DNA of 63,966 nucleotides, filler included, from Caldilineae bacterium (GTDB lineage: Bacteria; Chloroflexota; Anaerolineae; DTLA01), in NCBI GenBank assembly GCA_037446815.1. It is 3 parts of 3 records of this genome, joined end to end, with 100 filler letters (N's around TTAATTAATTAA, not from the genome) between each part and the next. Parts side by side here need not be neighbours in the genome. Positions count along the whole stretch, not along the records: positions 29,701 to 58,837 come from JBBIHX010000024.1; 2 more parts are not named here. One strand, 5' to 3'. Shown here piece after piece: positions 30,001-42,000 of this stretch; position 1 is the first letter of the stretch, and the number at the start of each line of letters is the position of its first letter. The position numbers are program-made.

Positions 30001-33000
30001 GCTGCTCGGCGCGCTCGTGGTAACGTGCGGCGCGCTCGTTTACCTTGCCGTGTTCTCCGGCCCAGGGCCTGCTGCCCCCGCGCCGACTCCGACGCCAACG
30101 TCCATATTCCTGGCCCAGCACCCGAACCCCAGGCCCCAGGGCCTTCCCGCCAAGAAGGTCGGCATCATCCCTGGGCATTGGCAGAACGACTCCGGCGCGG
30201 TGTGCGAAGACGGCCTCACGGAAGTATCCATCACCGTGAGCGTCGCCAACAAGGTGCGGGAACTGCTGGAATGGTATGGGTACGACGTGGAACTCCTGCC
30301 GGAGTTTTCTCCCCACATCCTGGGCTATGTGGCCGATGCTTTTCTCTCCATCCACGTGGACTCGTGCGAGCCGATAGAGGGGGCCACGGGGTTCAAGGTG
30401 GCCCGCGTGGAGAACAGCGCCATCCCCGAGCAGGATGACCGGCTTGTGGCGTGCCTGTGGAAGGAGTACCAGGCGGCCACGCAGTTGCCGCGCCACGAGG
30501 GCAGCATCACCAACGACATGCTGCATTACCACGCACTGAAGGAGATCGCCCCGCAAACGCCGGGCGCCATCATTGAAATCGGCTTCCTGCGCCTGGACCG
30601 CGAAACCCTTGTGCTGCGGCAAGATGCCATCGCGCAGGGCATCGCCAATGGGCTGATCTGCTTTCTGGAGGGCGGGCCGTAGCGCACGTGCGACGCACCT
30701 GGCGAGCATGCGTCGCACGTGGATGGGCGCCTACCCGGCCCCTTGCCCGAGCGCTAGACGAGTTTGTGCCCGCAGTTGTTGCAGAACTTGGAGCCTGGGA
30801 GCACGTCCGCGCCGCAGTTGGGGCACTTGCTCTCGGTAGCCAGTTTCTGCCCGCAGTTATTGCAGAACTTGGAGCCGGCAGGCACCATCGCGCCGCAATT
30901 GGGGCACTTGATGGTGGGAGCAGCCGCAGCCGCCGGCTGGCCCTCGCGCCCCGCGCGGAGCGCGTCGGAGATGGCCCCGGCCATGGCCGCGCCGATGCCA
31001 ACGCCCGCGCCAAGCCCCACGCCCGCGCCCGTCAGCGAACCGGCCTCGCCACCCGCCGTCGCGGCGTCGCCCATGGCGCGAGCGGCCTTGAACTGCAAGT
31101 ACTTCTGCATGTCGCCGATGGCGCCCATGGCGGCCCGCTCATCAATGGCCTTGGCCGTCTCCTCGGTCGGGCTGATGTTGTTGATGAACAGGACCTTGAG
31201 CGTGATGCCCAGCGCCCTGAAGTCATCCGCCAGCCGCGCCCGAATGACCCCGGCCAACTCGTCGTACAGCGAGGGCAAATCCAGGAGCGAAGCGTTGGAC
31301 TCGCCGAGAACGTCGGTCATCCTGCCTACGATCAGCCCCCGCAAGTAGTTCTCAATCTGGGCGTTGCGGTAGATGCCCTGCGTGCCCACAACCTTGTTGA
31401 CAAACAACTGCGGGTCGGTGATTTGCATGCTGTACTGGCCGAAGGCCCGCAGCCGCACCATGCCCAGGTCCTTGTCGCGCAGCGTGATGGGTTCGGCCGT
31501 ACCCCACTTCAGGTCAAGGAACTCCCGCAGGTTGACGAAGTACACCTCAGCCTTGAAGGGCGTCTGGCCCGAAAAGGCCTTCCCGATAAGGTCCACCAGC
31601 AGCGGGACGTTGGCCGTGGTGAGCGTGTGTCGCCCCGCGCCGAAGGTATCCAGCGCCTTGCCGTCGCGGAAGAACACCGCGGCCTGGCTCTCGCGCACGA
31701 TGAGTTGCGAGCCGATGCGGAAATCGCCGGAGCCGCTTTCCGGAATGCGGTGCACCATTTCCTGCCCCGACTCGTCAAAGTACTCTATCACATCAAAAAC
31801 CCGTGCCATGGAACACTCCTTTCGTTTCGTTCAGTTTACGCCTTCGCGCCGAGCGGGGGCTACTGCGTCTCGCCGGTTCCCAGGATGGCTTCCTGGCGGT
31901 GGTTCAGGACCGTGTCCATATCCTGGAGGATGGTGATGAGCGCGGCGATGGCGACGTTCAGGTCCCCGCCCTCCTTGAGCGCGGTCGCGATATTGCCGAT
32001 GCCCTCTTCCACCTTGGGAACAAAGCCGAGCAACTGGTGATCGTAGTCGTAGAGGGCGTCCAACTCTTCCTCTTTGACCTTCACCGCGTCAAACAGCCCT
32101 GCGTAGCCGTAGGATGCCGTTTTCAGTCGGTCAATCAGAATCTGCAACTTGCCCACGGCTCGCTCCAGGTCGTCCACCAGGAGCAACTTCCCCGCGCTCA
32201 TGAAGTCCAGTTGCAGGCCGCTCAACCTCATGCGGAGGTCCGACAGTTGGTTGGCGATGGTGGTGCGGAGCAACTTGTCGGCCTCGCGGCGGAGTTCCTT
32301 CTGCTTGTAGCCTTTGTAGCCCGGAATCTTGCCTACCAACTCTTCAAACTTGCCCACGCTAGAACTGATTTTGCCCTTGATGTCCATTTGTGCGCTCCCT
32401 TCTACCTTGTTGATGCTCGTCCGGTACAGATACAGCCAAACCCGCGCAGCGGTTCACGCCGACAAGTCCCACCTCCCTCTCCGAATCGCCAGCGCAGCCG
32501 CGAATCAGCCGCCGGCGGTGCGCAGCCGTCGTACAGCCACCAGCAGAATTGCCACCATGACGGCCACCAGGAGGATGAGCGTGCCGGAACCGGTGTTGGG
32601 CGTGGTTTCGGCTCCTTTGGGAGCAGGTGTGGCGGTCGGCGCGGCGGTAGGCTGTCCGGGCGCGGCGGTGGCTGCGGCCGTCGGCTCCTCCGTGGACACG
32701 ACCGTCCCCACGGGCACGGGCGTGTTGGTGGGCCGCGGCGTGCGCGTTGCTGTTGGGGCAGGGGTCGGCTCCCGCGTCGGCGTTGAGATCACCGGCGTCT
32801 CGGTGGGCGCAACAGCGGCTCCTCCGCCCCCCTTCTGAATCAGCGAGTAGATACCGATGCCCAGCAGTCCGAGCAACAGCAGCCCCACCAGAGCAATCGC
32901 CACGATCACAAAAGGCCGACGCTTGCTCCCTGGTTCCAGTATCCGTGCAAACATAGCCAATCCCCTCCTTCAGAGTTTCAGGCTCTGCCCTAGCCTACGA

Positions 33001-39000: not shown

Positions 39001-42000
39001 CACGTAGAGGAACAGCCACGAGACCGCGGGCGACGCCACCCCACGCGGGTCGGAGAACCCCAGCAGAACCACCGTGCCGAGGGCCGCCAGCAGAAACAGG
39101 CTGTACACCCAGCCCGCGCGCCGCCCGCGAATCTTGCGCAGGTGTGTCGTAACGACGTTCACCGCGCCCAGCAGCAGCGCCACCGCCGCCAGAATCATCG
39201 CCCAGTCCAGAAGGGTCTGCTGCACGCGGCGCAGGAACTCGTTCCGCACGAAGAAGTTCGCCAGGACGAGAAGCCCCGTGCCGATGGTGATGGCTATCGC
39301 CAAACTCCGCCCAAACCTGACCCTCATCGCGCCCTCCATGCCTAGAGCGAACGCAGCAACACGCCAACCAAGATGGTCAGTATCAGGAACACGCGCAGCC
39401 AGTCCTGCGCGCGCAGGCTTGCGATGTGGACGGCTTTCGGTCGCAGGTACGCGCCCACGGCGAACATCTCCTCACCGATGAGCGCTTCGTCGGCCGTCGC
39501 GTGGACGAACGGGAGCACCTGCGGGTCTGCCGCGCCCACAATTTGGGGCACGCGGGATTTGACGCCCGTCTCGCCCATGAGCAGGTATTCGGCCCCAAAG
39601 CGCCCTACCATGAGGTTCGCAGCCACCCGCTCGCCCAACAGGATGTCCATGACACCCGCAGCGTATGCCGTCGGGTCCGGAGCCACCATGCGCGCTTCCG
39701 GCTCGCGCACCTGATACTGGTACGGGTGGCCCTGCCACGTGCGCCAGGAGATGTCCTGCGCCAGGGGCAGCAGGGTCGGGTCCGACACCGTAACGATGAG
39801 AGGCGCGCCGCACGCGGTGGACTGCTCCGCAACGTGCCCCATCAGCGCAACCCCCGCCAGGCTCTCCGCCGTGCTGGGGTCTGCGATGCCGCCGACGCCG
39901 AGGGACATGTGGATCGGCTTGCCCGTCTCGGCGCTCTGCCCGATAAGGGCGCGCAGGTACTCAAACGCGCGGATGGGGCGCAAGGAGACGCGCTTGCCCG
40001 CGCGCACCTGCAACGTGAACAGCGCCAGCAGCGGCAAGATAACCAGGAGCAAGACGAACATGAGCGCCTGCTTGTCGGTGATGCCGGAGTTGCGCAGCAG
40101 TTCCAGGATACTGTCCATGCGTCCTCTCCCGACCTCTACGAAGGCTCCTCAATGCGGCGAATGATGCGCTCCACGGTGTCTCTGTCTTCCAGCGCGCAGG
40201 CCCAATCGTGCGCGAGTCGGCCCTGACCCGCCACGCGCAGAAGCGGCTCCAGGAACACCAGCGCCTGGCTTCCCAGAAAGGCCAGCGGGCTGTGCGACTC
40301 CAGCAGGAAGACGGCGGGGGCCTCCAGTCCCCACGCCTTCACCTGCGCCGCAAGACGCTCTACCAGGGCTTCGCGCTCATCCGTCGGCAAGGCACACCCC
40401 CGAACCCCATCGGTTTCCCGCTGTGGGATTTACATATAGTATAGCACAACTCTCTCACTTTTTCTAGTCCTGGCGAGCGGGATTCGCCTCCGGGCGCGCG
40501 GCCACCAGCATGACGTTGAGCAGCGTGCGGCGCACGTAGCGGACATCCAGCCCCGCGGCACGCACCCAGTCCGGCAGGGCGCGCTCTACCCGCAGCCACG
40601 CCTGGTACGTGTTCCACTCCTCCGCCAGGCTCGTGCGGCGGTGTCGGGTCTCGCCCCACAGCGAACCCAGCGGCGAGAACGTGAGCGCGTCCAACGCCCG
40701 CCGCGCCCAGGATGCCGCCGGCTCCACCACGGCGAGCACCCCGCCGGGGCGCAGCACGCGGGCGATCTCGGCGAGCGCGGCCTCGGCGTCCAGGTGGTGC
40801 AGCACGCCATCCACCAGCACCGCGTCAAACGCGTCGTCGGCGAAGGGCATGCGCAGCCCATCGGCGGCTACGGCGCGGGGCGGGCGGCCTGCACGGAGCA
40901 GGCGCAGCGAGTAGTCCATGCTGACCACGCGGCGGCAGCCCAAGCCGGCCAGCAGGCGCGTATTGATGCCGTCGCCGCACCCGTAGTCCAGAATCCGCCA
41001 TTCGGGCGCGAAGCCAAAGGCGCGCAGCCTGCGGAGCCTGCGGCCTTCGCCGCGCCGCACGTGGAGATAGGCCGCATCCCACTCCGCCTGCCCATGCTGG
41101 GATTCCAACCCGAACGCCTGGACGTACTCCCGCGCCAGGCGATCCCAGCGGTAGCGCGCCCGCGTGAACTCCCGCGCGCGCGCCGCCAGGTCTGCCCGCA
41201 CCGCGCCGTCGGTCAGCAGCCCGTGAATCGCCGCGACCCACGCCTCCGCGTCCAGCGGCGGCACGAGGACGCCGTTCGCGCCATCCACCACCGCGTCAGG
41301 AATACCCTCCAGCCGCGAGGCCACCACGGGCAACCCGCGCGATGCCGCCTCCAGCGCCACGATGCCGAACCCCTCCATGTCGCCCGAGATGGGGATATTG
41401 GGCATGACAAACAGGGTGGCGGCGGCGTACAGGTCTTCCAGAAGATTGTCCGGCACGCGCCCCAGGAGCACCACCCGCTCGTGCATCTTGCCCTCGCGGA
41501 TGATGCGGCGCACGGTGTGCCGCTCCGGCCCATCCCCGACGACGATACAGAGGAGACTCGGGTGCAACCGCGCCAGCCGGGGGATGACCTCCCGCACGAA
41601 CCACGCCACGCCCTTGCGCGGCACCAATCGTCCCACGGCCAGGAGCACCGGCCGGTCGCGCAGTTCCAACGTCAGCGCCAGGCGGAGTTTCTCGCGCGCC
41701 AGGGGGCGATCCGTCGGCTCCTCGGGCGCGTGCACGCCGATGGGGATGATGCGGCAGCGGTCGGGGGCCACGCCCTTGGCGAGACACGCTTCGCGCGCGG
41801 CCTGGCTGATGGCGATGACCGCGTCGGCGCGGCGCACGCAGGGGAGCACCACCGCCTGGTACACGCGGCGCGGGTACAGGATGTCCAGCCCGTGGGCGGT
41901 GAGGCCCCACCTGCGCCCCGTCAGCCGCGCCAGGGCCAGGCCCAGCGGCGCCAAGACCGGGTCGCTGACGTGGATGAACCGCACGGGCAGGGTCGTGCAG

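Follow-up and report, generated by a model that had tools for sequence, protein, structure and literature searches.

In the divisome, the FtsA-FtsZ membrane tether relies on FtsA, an actin-fold ATP-binding protein on the inner side of the membrane. The inner-membrane platforms PilM-PilN-PilO of type IV pili and GspL-GspM of type II secretion anchor their cytoplasmic actin-fold protein through a single-pass partner, which binds it with a short N-terminal part inside the cell and has its folded domain outside. The cell-shape system MreB-RodZ-MreC-MreD comprises an actin-fold ATPase, the single-pass protein RodZ and the polytopic protein MreD. GlmL/MutL, EutA and DdrA-DdrB are reactivases of B12 enzymes.

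The locus compared here with these systems lies in a window of 63,966 nt, filler included (the whole stretch of DNA that was analysed), from a Caldilineae bacterium. Seven co-directional minus-strand genes, g31 to g25, span 32990-40390 with intergenic distances of -4 to 31 nt (17, 2, 23, -4, 20 and 31 nt from g31 down to g25). All seven ORFs were found where the first-pass annotation had placed them, and its seven-gene description is corrected by an eighth co-directional gene, g24, after g25. The features are the following.

40438..40466, minus strand: promoter-like site, TAGAAA, 17-nt spacer, TG, TATACT; consensus match only
40136-40390, minus strand: g31, 84 aa, no family
39342-40118, minus strand: g30, 258 aa, DUF6754 (Pfam E 2.7e-45)
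38698-39339, minus strand: g29, 213 aa, polytopic membrane protein, no family
36526-38674, minus strand: g28, double zinc ribbon, acidic linker with PxWL motifs, TM helix, alpha/beta domain, second TM helix; 100 N at 38176-38275
37333..38509, minus strand (bounds approximate): g28 linker, at least four copies of [DE][VIL]P[DAS]WL[RQK]xL
35864-36529, minus strand: g27, 221 aa, polytopic membrane protein, no family
34095-35843, minus strand: g26, 582 aa, predicted PF13941 (MutL/GlmL-type) ASKHA ATPase (Pfam E 3.3e-54)
32990-34063, minus strand: g25, 357 aa, three-domain soluble protein (AF2 model)
32505-32960, minus strand: g24, N-terminal TM helix, Pro/Thr-rich stretch, TPNTG, hydrophobic segment, RRLR tail

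Membrane proteins account for five of the products. The Pfam assignments made earlier were also recovered, namely DUF6754 on g30, PF13941 on g26, N-terminal zinc ribbons on g28 (DZR, E 2.1e-14) and weak Biotin_lipoyl/RnfC_N matches on g25, while Pfam and NCBIfam place g31, g29 and g27 in no known family, g29 having only a sub-threshold Pfam match. The promoter-like site lies within the 73 nt that precede g31 and is the single such match within 31800-41000, where 0.6 would be expected by chance. A glycosyltransferase-methyltransferase gene lies upstream of the set in the window.

The complete order g30-g29-g28-g27-g26-g25 is present in 40 of the 80 named genome loci and rearranged in none; in the remaining 40, the genes found keep this order and the locus ends before completion. 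It is also retained in 10/10 genomes from other families of the phylum, so that the conservation first reported for five of five genomes is borne out more widely. At least 17 families share this order, with protein identities of 23-53% and flanking genes that vary between loci around a constant set. Homologues of g31 stand immediately upstream of g30 in 73/80 loci and in nine of the ten distant genomes, and g29 was found in 77/80 loci. The restriction to Anaerolineae proposed earlier proved too narrow, many of the families that carry the set in the phylum sample being labelled as other classes. In this sample of 301 genomes, the g27 profile matches 82 and DUF6754 matches 79, all 79 inside the 82, with no genome having DUF6754 only. 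Within families the distribution is all or none (f2 19/19, f19 18/18, f13 0/13, f29 0/21), and g24 and g25 are absent from some lineages. The genes from g31 to g24 thus form a vertically inherited unit, whole or absent per family, apart from the lineages that lack g24 or g25. The proposal that the genes act as one unit gains support from their fixed order and tiny gaps, and also from the co-occurrence of g27 with DUF6754 and the single promoter-like site upstream of g31. With the five membrane proteins and the ATP-binding motifs of g26, these findings support in part the earlier interpretation as a putative ATPase-driven envelope machine. Peptidoglycan does not explain the presence of the set, because MurB_C occurs in 259 of the 301 genomes, including whole families without it (f26 17/17, f29 21/21, f28 9/9). 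A literature search found no paper on the gene set, DUF6754 or PF13941.

The earlier reading of the PF13941 protein as an ATPase of the actin fold holds as a prediction from its sequence, in which all the ATP-binding motifs of the actin/Hsp70/sugar-kinase fold are intact. The family match covers residues 10-465 of g26 and is followed by an extra conserved, beta-rich C-terminal domain (approximately residues 470-582). Among 50 sequences, position D14 is D in 44 and E in 6, G16, G159, G160 and G289 are invariant, and D287 and G408 are kept in 47 and 48, respectively. PF13941 is the only Pfam family on g26, FtsA families giving no match, and NCBIfam GlmL and ornithine-degradation models match weakly, far under the GlmL equivalog cut-offs (61.9 vs 475 bits; 69.8 vs 600). 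A second PF13941 gene of this genome, located elsewhere, is much nearer the family model (E 1.7e-166). In five distant genomes without g25, g26 is 643-725 aa long and ends in basic-aromatic tails (KRRGWFGKKK, KRGFFRRK, KKRGFFRRK, RKRGWFRRR and RRNWFGRRKS), which we take to resemble the C-termini that bring MinD and FtsA to the membrane. We know of no member of the GlmL/hydantoinase branch that forms filaments or binds peptide tails.

The g28 gene is interrupted in its repeat region by the 100 N, and the 247-aa and 629-aa ORFs are two pieces of one gene. In relatives, one ORF of 433-1171 aa encodes the whole protein, and the gene is uninterrupted in the close relatives L005 (703 aa) and L006 (726 aa). 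Its conserved part is the C-terminal 300 aa (alignment A3); since a single TM helix follows the cytoplasmic zinc ribbon, this domain should be outside. In the linker, the motif copies EEVPDWLARL, EELPDWLREL, EVPAWLETL and AIPSWLEVL can be read, and the N gap may hide further ones. Across 45 relatives, [DE][VIL]PxWL[RQK] occurs 329 times, with 0-41 copies per protein; almost all linker tryptophans lie inside a motif (41 of 44 in L086), and the ATPase tail of L086 bears two PDWL motifs. A six-frame scan of the whole genome found g28 to be the sole ORF with at least two copies. The array is dispensable for the core: copies are zero in L015, L024 and L025, and in 3/10 distant genomes g28 is only ~290 aa long and has neither linker nor zinc ribbon.

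The linker motif appears close to the FtsZ tails (DVPAFLR) of these genomes, a likeness that spans a pattern of 6-7 residues. FtsZ C-termini in six genomes with the set read DDIEVPAFIRN, SLDVPAFLRRR, DLDIPSFLRRK, DLDVPTFLRNRR, DLDIPPFLRNR (twice) and YELPPFLMR, and 7/8 FtsZ homologues examined have such a tail. The C-terminal peptide of FtsZ has a role in binding membrane anchors (PMC9262947). The set may be likened to the FtsA-FtsZ tether in having an actin-fold protein predicted at the inner face, a basic-aromatic C-terminal tail in some lineages and an acidic-[IVL]-P-x-aromatic-L-basic motif as its apparent handle. It differs in that the g28 motif reaches 41 copies on a membrane protein, instead of one at the end of a tubulin homologue, and always has W where FtsZ has F. 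Moreover, g26 matches PF13941 only, ftsZ adjoins the set in just 1 of 98 loci examined, and the genome's own ftsA-ftsZ pair is located elsewhere.

The remaining members include both membrane-bound and soluble proteins. The two polytopic proteins have about six hydrophobic segments each. The g29 product has invariant charged residues including R135, R202 and R209, and its profile has no match among PDB sequences; g27, at a mean column identity of 50% the most conserved protein of the set, gives only chance-level matches there, and in the protein atlas it matches only hypothetical proteins of Chloroflexota. A conserved central hydrophobic stretch of g31, PAILxLExHKPLxFLGSQ (alignment A8), may dip into the membrane. 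The confident g30 model (AF2, pLDDT 94.3) comprises a TM helix, a Rossmann-like alpha/beta domain (residues ~49-240), which the positive-inside rule, on charge only, would place on the cytoplasmic side, and a second TM helix. Its first strand is followed by a glycine-rich loop, HxSLGxGG, with G74 conserved in 51/51 and H70 in 46/51 sequences. The g25 model (AF2, pLDDT 90.8), also confident, starts with a barrel-sandwich hybrid (~14-150), continues with a swivelling beta/beta/alpha domain (~149-281) and has a KOW/SH3-like domain at ~295-356; the previous description as beta-barrel-rich was too loose. VIA neighbours include the phospho-carrier domain of Enzyme I (2wqd, Z 11.3), 5hv1 (10.2), 2e28 (10.0), NqrA (7.9), KOW domains (7.7-8.4) and DdrA (2d0o, 7.7); the g25 family comprises 3573 clusters at E<=1e-3.

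The chains nearest to g30 in structure raise the possibility of a transporter or channel, in which g27 and g29 would form the pore, g30 a ligand-sensing gate of the RCK/KTN type, and g26 and g25 would supply regulation or energy. The invariant charged residues of the two conserved six-segment proteins and the glycine-rich loop fit this idea, as do VIA matches of the g30 model to KtrA (5but, Z 10.0), KtrC (9.8), the MthK RCK domain (9.8) and KTN domains (Z 9.2-10.0 for the RCK/KTN domains of TrkA, KtrA and MthK type) and a Foldseek first rank for MthK RCK (4l75, E 2.6e-3). However, Z values near 10 are reached with many Rossmann-type chains (1kjn, Z 9.6), and with 202 chains of many unrelated Rossmann families at Z>=8 the fold must be called generic. 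Pfam and NCBIfam gave no match to a transporter or TrkA_N family at E<=0.1, g30 has a membrane anchor at either end, the set has no K+ transporter gene beside it, and the zinc ribbon, the motif array and g24 would be left unexplained. We know of no transporter that runs on an ASKHA ATPase, and a transport function is considered rather unlikely. A repair or chaperone role, with g26 acting like the B12-enzyme reactivases and, together with g25, opening or exchanging a Rossmann-like partner (the domain in g30 or g28) and so keeping a membrane-bound enzyme or cofactor in working order, also appears improbable. It would account for the PF13941 match and for the weaker NCBIfam ones, and the swivelling middle domain of g25 recalls that of DdrA (115 residues aligned), whose partner DdrB has a Rossmann/flavodoxin-like fold, as the putative partners do here. 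Nevertheless, the DdrA match is middling and ranks under many other swivel domains, g26 falls far short of the GlmL equivalog cut-offs and has an extra C-terminal domain, its partners are membrane proteins, no mutase or B12-enzyme gene belongs to the set and no mutase gene neighbours it, and the PF13941 gene nearest the family model is the one elsewhere in the genome.

The last gene of the locus suggests a device for the export, sorting or anchoring of the Pro/Thr-rich g24 or another surface polymer, whose membrane proteins would pass the substrate to a sortase while the ATPase powers or times the step. A g24 homologue follows g25 co-directionally in 35 loci (median distance 68 nt), and 35/35 of these proteins combine a [PA]x[TSA]G motif with a hydrophobic segment and a basic tail, so the C-terminus is a predicted sortase-type sorting signal. 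Two sortase genes are encoded in the genome, the glycosyltransferase-methyltransferase gene upstream would suit such a role, and at L086 a protein other than g24 lies downstream and also bears a sorting signal (DUF11, ending in LPDTS, a hydrophobic segment and RRRR). This function is nonetheless very unlikely: a g24-like gene is found in only 1/10 distant genomes, where the other genes persist, no sortase gene occurs among the recurring neighbour clusters of the loci, and the flanking glycosyltransferases are not conserved between loci. Finally, the genes might be kept adjacent for regulation only, their products not meeting in one complex, as gene order by itself predicts contact weakly. Against this stand an order held at 23-53% identity in at least 17 families, stops and starts that overlap or nearly touch, the strict co-occurrence of g27 and DUF6754, and flanks that vary around an unchanged set, and we regard it as extremely improbable.

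The reading we favour, at a probability of roughly 40%, is that of a membrane complex linked to the envelope or to division, with the ATPase at its periphery. The products of the set would join into one complex, with g27, g29 and the TM helices of g30 and g28 as its membrane core. The Rossmann-like domain of g30 and the zinc ribbon and linker of g28 would be cytoplasmic, the latter two offering a surface on which the ATPase g26 and its partner g25 would dock. On the external side would be g24, linked to the wall, and the C-terminal domain of g28. As g26 binds and hydrolyses ATP, both the membrane core and the outer domain would change state, a coupling of a cytoplasmic actin-fold protein to envelope proteins like that of FtsA, PilM and MreB-RodZ. 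As a multivalent array of FtsZ-tail-like motifs, the linker could recruit g26, or those proteins of the cell that bind FtsZ tails, FtsA for instance, and the complex would in this way be connected with division or with envelope work related to the septum.

Such a complex would share with PilM-PilN-PilO and GspL-GspM a partner that holds the actin-fold protein by a cytoplasmic N-terminal part and has its folded domain outside, and one operon of fixed order. Unlike them, it has no Pfam or sequence relation to these proteins and no secretin, pilin or traffic-ATPase genes, and it includes two polytopic proteins and domains between two TM helices that are absent from those platforms. The predicted layout of g28 (cytoplasmic N-terminal domain, linker, outer domain) follows a RodZ-like logic and is accompanied by an MreD-like small polytopic protein, but no homology to the cell-shape system was found in Pfam, NCBIfam or PDB profile searches, g26 belongs to the GlmL branch, and the Rossmann-like and swivelling parts are extra. 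It appears that the products make up a membrane complex not described before, whose actin-fold ATPase would sit on the inner side, and the conservation of the set reaches beyond the original claim, to many Chloroflexota and not one class.

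Eight genes, g31 to g24 in order of transcription, form the set on the second contig of the window, C24, where window position equals contig position plus 29700. They and their neighbours are as follows:

40464-42551 and 42173-42934, minus strand: fused GT4 glycosyltransferase-methyltransferase and separate methyltransferase, upstream of the set
40136-40390, minus strand: g31, ORF, 84-aa protein
39342-40118, minus strand: g30, ORF, DUF6754 membrane protein
38698-39339, minus strand: g29, ORF, polytopic membrane protein
36526-38674, minus strand: g28, ORF broken by N, zinc ribbon, linker, helix and C-terminal domain
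35864-36529, minus strand: g27, ORF, polytopic membrane protein
34095-35843, minus strand: g26, ORF, PF13941 ASKHA ATPase of 582 aa
32990-34063, minus strand: g25, ORF, three-domain protein of 357 aa
32505-32960, minus strand: g24, ORF, protein with a sorting signal
30754-31809 and 31860-32387, minus strand: SPFH/Band_7_1 protein with a C-terminal double zinc ribbon, and 175-aa ORF of no family, downstream of g24
29702-30682, plus strand: N-acetylmuramoyl-L-alanine amidase (Amidase_3), where the second contig begins

Successive spacings from g31 to g24 are 17, 2, 23, -4, 20, 31 and 29 nt, and a promoter-like match (to the consensus only, and the sole one in 31800-41000) lies directly upstream of g31 at 40466-40438. 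A run of 100 N at 38176-38275 splits g28, whose flanking frames are two pieces of one gene that is uninterrupted in close relatives (703 aa in locus L005, 726 aa in L006); the upstream glycosyltransferase and methyltransferase genes are kept in these closest relatives only. Another N run, at 29601-29700, joins the separate contigs C23 and C24, so linkage between the two halves cannot be inferred. Pfam and NCBIfam identify g30 as DUF6754, g26 as PF13941 and the start of g28 as zinc ribbons, give weak barrel-sandwich matches for g25 and one sub-threshold match for g29, and contain no family for g31, g27 or g24.

The first-pass annotation had described an Anaerolineae gene set with the same order in five of five loci, and its conserved order is borne out in a larger sample. 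A scan with the DUF6754 alignment, one genome per species, yielded 378 loci, and the best 80 of these, labelled nearly all as Anaerolineae, Anaerolineales, Caldilineaceae, Ardenticatenales or Chloroflexota, were compared with the window's proteins by tblastn. The order g30-g29-g28-g27-g26-g25 is complete in 40 of these 80; in the other 40 the genes found keep the same order and the DNA runs out before the set is complete, and in loci with several kilobases left a long g28-type ORF fills the space. The small gene g31 lies upstream of g30 in 73 of the same best 80. All ten genomes taken from other families of the phylum share the order as well, at g30 identities of 22-33%; five of them lack g25 and encode a longer g26 (643-725 aa), and three have a short g28 (about 290 aa) that carries neither zinc ribbon nor linker.

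Within the window's own class the claim of an Anaerolineae set stands, with g27 in 29 of 33 sampled genomes, yet its confinement to that class fails: among 301 evenly sampled Chloroflexota genomes the g27 profile is found in 82 and DUF6754 in 79, all of them inside the 82, and the set extends beyond a single class. Of the three genomes with g27 only, one is 73% complete and in the other two the copies have diverged. Presence follows family, the set being found in 19/19, 18/18 and 13/15 genomes of families f2, f19 and f17 of the phylum sample and in none of those of f13 (0/13), f26 (0/17) and f29 (0/21). One order combined with this all-or-none presence by family therefore indicates that the set is inherited as one unit. 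Peptidoglycan was considered as the cause of the phyletic pattern and rejected, MurB_C being present in 259/301 genomes, including those of set-free families.

Flanking genes differ among loci; those that recur are, upstream, a HEAT-repeat gene (18 loci) and, on the opposite strand, FtsK (8 loci), and downstream PspA (8 loci). The HEAT_2 gene is co-directional, lies about 50 nt upstream of g31 (for example at 8666-9589 in locus L038) and may be a lineage-specific ninth member. The SPFH/Band_7_1 neighbour in the window, together with PspA downstream in eight other loci, may hint at a membrane-stress neighbourhood. A complete set with 35-48% identity to the window also occurs in a metagenome-assembled genome labelled Acidobacteriota (locus L069, JBLMXX010000419.1), most simply a Chloroflexota contig put in the wrong bin.

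The ATPase of the set, g26, matches PF13941 (MutL) at 184.8 bits, with a gathering threshold of 27, over model positions 1-449 of 450 and the first 465 residues of the protein, and a conserved, beta-rich C-terminal domain lies outside the family model. Its ASKHA motifs are conserved among 50 aligned sequences: D14 is Asp in 44 and Glu in 6, T20 is Thr in 46 and Ser in 4, G16, G159, G160 and G289 are each invariant (50/50), and D287 and G408 are kept in 47/50 and 48/50. We take these motifs to be phosphate 1 (DxGxxxT), GGxDGG, phosphate 2 (DxG) and adenosine (GG). MutL is the sole Pfam family at E<=0.1, which places g26 in no FtsA, MreB, ParM or MamK family, and a comparison with PDB sequences gave nothing better than E>0.3. 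The protein scores 61.9 bits against the GlmL equivalog NF040745 (cut-off 475) and 69.8 bits against the ornithine-degradation model NF040744 (cut-off 600), in both cases below the cut-off, and a second PF13941 gene of the same genome fits the family model far better (E about 1.7e-166 to 3.1e-166), so that g26 is a diverged, specialised paralogue. This second gene (484 aa) lies in locus L001 (region 1124-3977 of contig C152 in the window's own genome, G000) and is flanked by a c-di-AMP receptor (PF06153) on one side and two octopine-dehydrogenase/NAD-binding genes on the other, with a response regulator upstream; a g25-like gene was sought after it, and an octopine-dehydrogenase-family gene stands there instead. 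L001 is a different, likewise uncharacterised context for PF13941.

In the five genomes that lack g25, the long g26 has a C-terminal tail of basic and aromatic residues (KRRGWFGKKK, KRGFFRRK, KKRGFFRRK, RKRGWFRRR or RRNWFGRRKS) that resembles the termini by which MinD and FtsA are targeted to the membrane, and at locus L086 this tail also holds two PDWL motifs. In g28, the acidic linker between zinc ribbon and membrane helix repeats the short pattern [DE][DE]-[VIL]-P-[DAS]-W-L-[RQK]-x-L. Among 45 full-length g28 relatives this motif occurs 329 times, each protein having between 0 and 41 copies, and almost all of their linker tryptophans fall inside motif copies. In the window g28 has at least 4 copies, the N gap falling in the same region, and it is the sole ORF of at least 100 aa with two or more copies in six frames of the whole genome.

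The linker motif closely resembles the peptides at the C-terminus of FtsZ in the same genomes: DDIEVPAFIRN and SLDVPAFLRRR in that of the window, DLDIPSFLRRK, DLDVPTFLRNRR and DLDIPPFLRNR in other set-bearing ones; seven of eight examined FtsZ homologues carry such a peptide. The FtsZ C-terminal peptide is the handle by which FtsA and other partners take hold of the protein. According to PMC9262947, MinC and the membrane anchor compete for it. Together, the motif array of g28 and the long-g26 tail suggest peptide-mediated recruitment and would place the ATPase at the inner membrane face. Prediction of a complex between g26 (alignment A7) and g28 residues 88-131 gave 0.00 in two runs without controls, which bears neither way on binding.

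The window's genome has two ftsZ genes (loci L095 and L096, contigs C14 and C7), one of which adjoins ftsA, and the second FtsZ has a longer Pro/Ala-rich linker ahead of its C-terminal peptide. At locus L085 (genome G036) the gene immediately before g30, at 8313-9710, codes for an FtsZ paralogue that lacks the usual C-terminal peptide. Adjacency to ftsZ was rejected as a general link, since it is seen in 1 of 98 loci; three further genomes from the genus of L085 do not show it.

The g30 protein matches DUF6754 (PF20539) at 155 bits (cut-off 27) over model positions 8-246 of 257, and its model, built from 51 sequences (pLDDT 94.3), is a Rossmann-like domain flanked by two long helices. Structural neighbours are generic, at Z near 10 (dehydrogenases, sirtuins, glycosyltransferase halves, RCK/KTN and 1kjn), and Foldseek returned nothing at E<=0.001. 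A conserved HxSLGxGG loop follows the first strand, and glycine loops at this place in Rossmann-like folds are frequent phosphate or nucleotide sites. The last 300 residues of g28 have the same succession of helix, alpha/beta domain and helix, without the glycine loop. Profile-profile alignment of this region with DUF6754 is colinear over 180-185 columns (E 0.051 and 0.012, probability 1-3.5%), Pfam and BLASTP found nothing between the two, and 1kjn is matched by both the g30 model and the g28 model of the first-pass annotation; paralogy is possible, and unproven. In g30 the residues that follow the first helix are strongly positive, which suggests that its domain faces the inner side. In g28 a cytoplasmic zinc ribbon and a single helix precede the C-terminal domain, which would therefore lie outside the membrane. 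The polytopic proteins g27 and g29 have about six hydrophobic segments each and invariant charged residues, and are without relatives in Pfam or NCBIfam; PDB sequences gave chance-level matches only for g27 and none for g29, and a protein atlas lists only Chloroflexota hypothetical proteins for g27. Homology between the two was rejected (nothing by BLASTP; hhalign E 0.15 over 56 columns).

The g25 model, from 41 sequences (pLDDT 90.8), has three domains: a barrel-sandwich hybrid (Z 7.3-7.9 to biotinyl domains and the N-terminal part of NqrA), a swivelling beta/beta/alpha domain, and a barrel of the KOW/SH3 kind (Z 7.7-8.4 at rmsd 1.3-2.1). The swivelling domain resembles the phospho-carrier domain of Enzyme I (2wqd, Z 11.3), rifampin phosphotransferase (Z 10.2), the C-domain of pyruvate kinase (10.0) and the reactivase DdrA (7.7). 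An Enzyme I-type phospho-relay is unlikely, because no His occurs in its invariant or 90%-conserved columns among the 41 sequences; g25 has no PEP-utilizers Pfam match either. The protein scores 15.7 bits against RnfC_N, below the cut-off of 25.6, its NqrA likeness (Z 7.9) covers 62 residues only, and g27 and g29 match no Rnf or Nqr family in Pfam or NCBIfam. For g25 the protein atlas points to Planctomycetota and Fidelibacterota clusters in which 11-19% of members bear RnfC_N or Biotin_lipoyl. Among the matches listed, large-scale profile searches for g25 gave close relatives only, and fused forms of 700-2000 aa were not found, which is weak evidence.

The eighth gene, g24, encodes a protein that begins with a membrane helix, continues with a stretch rich in Pro and Thr, and has the C-terminal layout of a sortase substrate, with a motif of the LPXTG/LAXTG type; in the window this C-terminus consists of TPNTG, SGTLILLVAVMVAILLVAV and RRLR. 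In 35 loci g25 is followed by a g24 homologue, with a median spacing of 68 nt, and all 35 have such a motif, the hydrophobic segment and the basic tail. A pattern search places [PA]xTG within the final 48 residues of 33 of them; inspection by eye shows PxSG, beside a chance match, in two of those 33, and PSAG in the remaining two of the 35. Two sortase genes (PF04203, E 1.0e-33 and 1.1e-25) are present in the window's genome. At L086, in a distant genome, a DUF11 surface protein after the set (18534-19577) ends in LPDTS, a hydrophobic segment and RRRR, another sortase-type substrate, where g24 stands in other loci.

We read the set as one membrane complex with a peripheral ATPase and a role in envelope or septum work, at a probability of roughly 0.4. 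Together with the helices of g30 and g28, the polytopic g27 and g29 would make up the membrane core; g26 and g25 would dock on the g30 domain and on the zinc ribbon and linker of g28, and ATP turnover by g26 would act on the outer domain of g28, changing its state, and likewise on the wall-linked g24 in genomes that have it. Counted against a role at envelope or septum are the absence of the motif array from some carriers, the single ftsZ-adjacent locus among 98, and a distribution that peptidoglycan, to judge from the spread of MurB_C, does not explain.

Other readings draw on the same proteins. A gated transporter is unlikely. The g30 domain resembles RCK/KTN (Z 9.2-10.0, tied with dehydrogenases, sirtuins and glycosyltransferases) and has no TrkA_N match in Pfam (E<=0.1). 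We likewise doubt a reactivase-like maintenance system. GlmL-type reactivases share their Pfam family with g26, whereas the equivalog cut-offs are failed and the genomic context is absent, with no mutase family in the set or its recurring flanks and with membrane proteins and g25 as the neighbours of g26. That the set is a sorting device for g24 would suit the C-terminus of that protein and is very improbable, since beyond the class of the window g24 is rare and turns up in only one of ten distant genomes. Co-regulation alone, for genes that keep one order from family to family, has hardly any probability.

The envelope or septum reading can be carried further, to a new membrane-bound cytoskeletal or morphogenetic system in a large part of Chloroflexota, with a GlmL-branch ATPase gathered at the membrane by a multi-motif zinc-ribbon hub; this we consider speculative and rather improbable. 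The zinc-ribbon protein would show up to about 40 tandem FtsZ-tail-like peptides, with which the hub might build its own ATPase assembly or capture the cell's FtsZ-tail binders, and a signal would pass through the two new polytopic proteins to the outer domain and the wall-anchored Pro/Thr-rich protein. The likeness to FtsA with the FtsZ tail, to PilM-PilN-PilO and to MreB-RodZ-MreCD is one of logic, and the set is placed outside these systems because no homology to them was found.

Sediments, soils, hot springs and wastewater sludge are rich in Chloroflexota, whose cell plan is single-membrane and often filamentous, with a poorly understood molecular basis. Open-access full text and bioRxiv yielded no paper on DUF6754, PF13941 or the gene set and, among those listed, none on FtsZ-tail-like motif arrays of this sort; FcmB, described in PMC12645912, is ParM-derived and unrelated. 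We rate the set as an undescribed kind of system made from known folds, "new" denoting an absence of matches and not a demonstrated function. Several cultured members of the phylum carry it, so genetics or localisation studies are feasible, and the tandem FtsZ-tail-like motifs are a concrete handle that is directly testable with peptides. Seven or eight genes without known function, in strict order and in 82 of 301 genomes, are among the larger blind spots of Chloroflexota cell biology. If they encode an envelope or division device with a GlmL-type ATPase, this would be a new branch among the membrane-working actin-fold proteins and would give a first function to DUF6754 and four nameless families.
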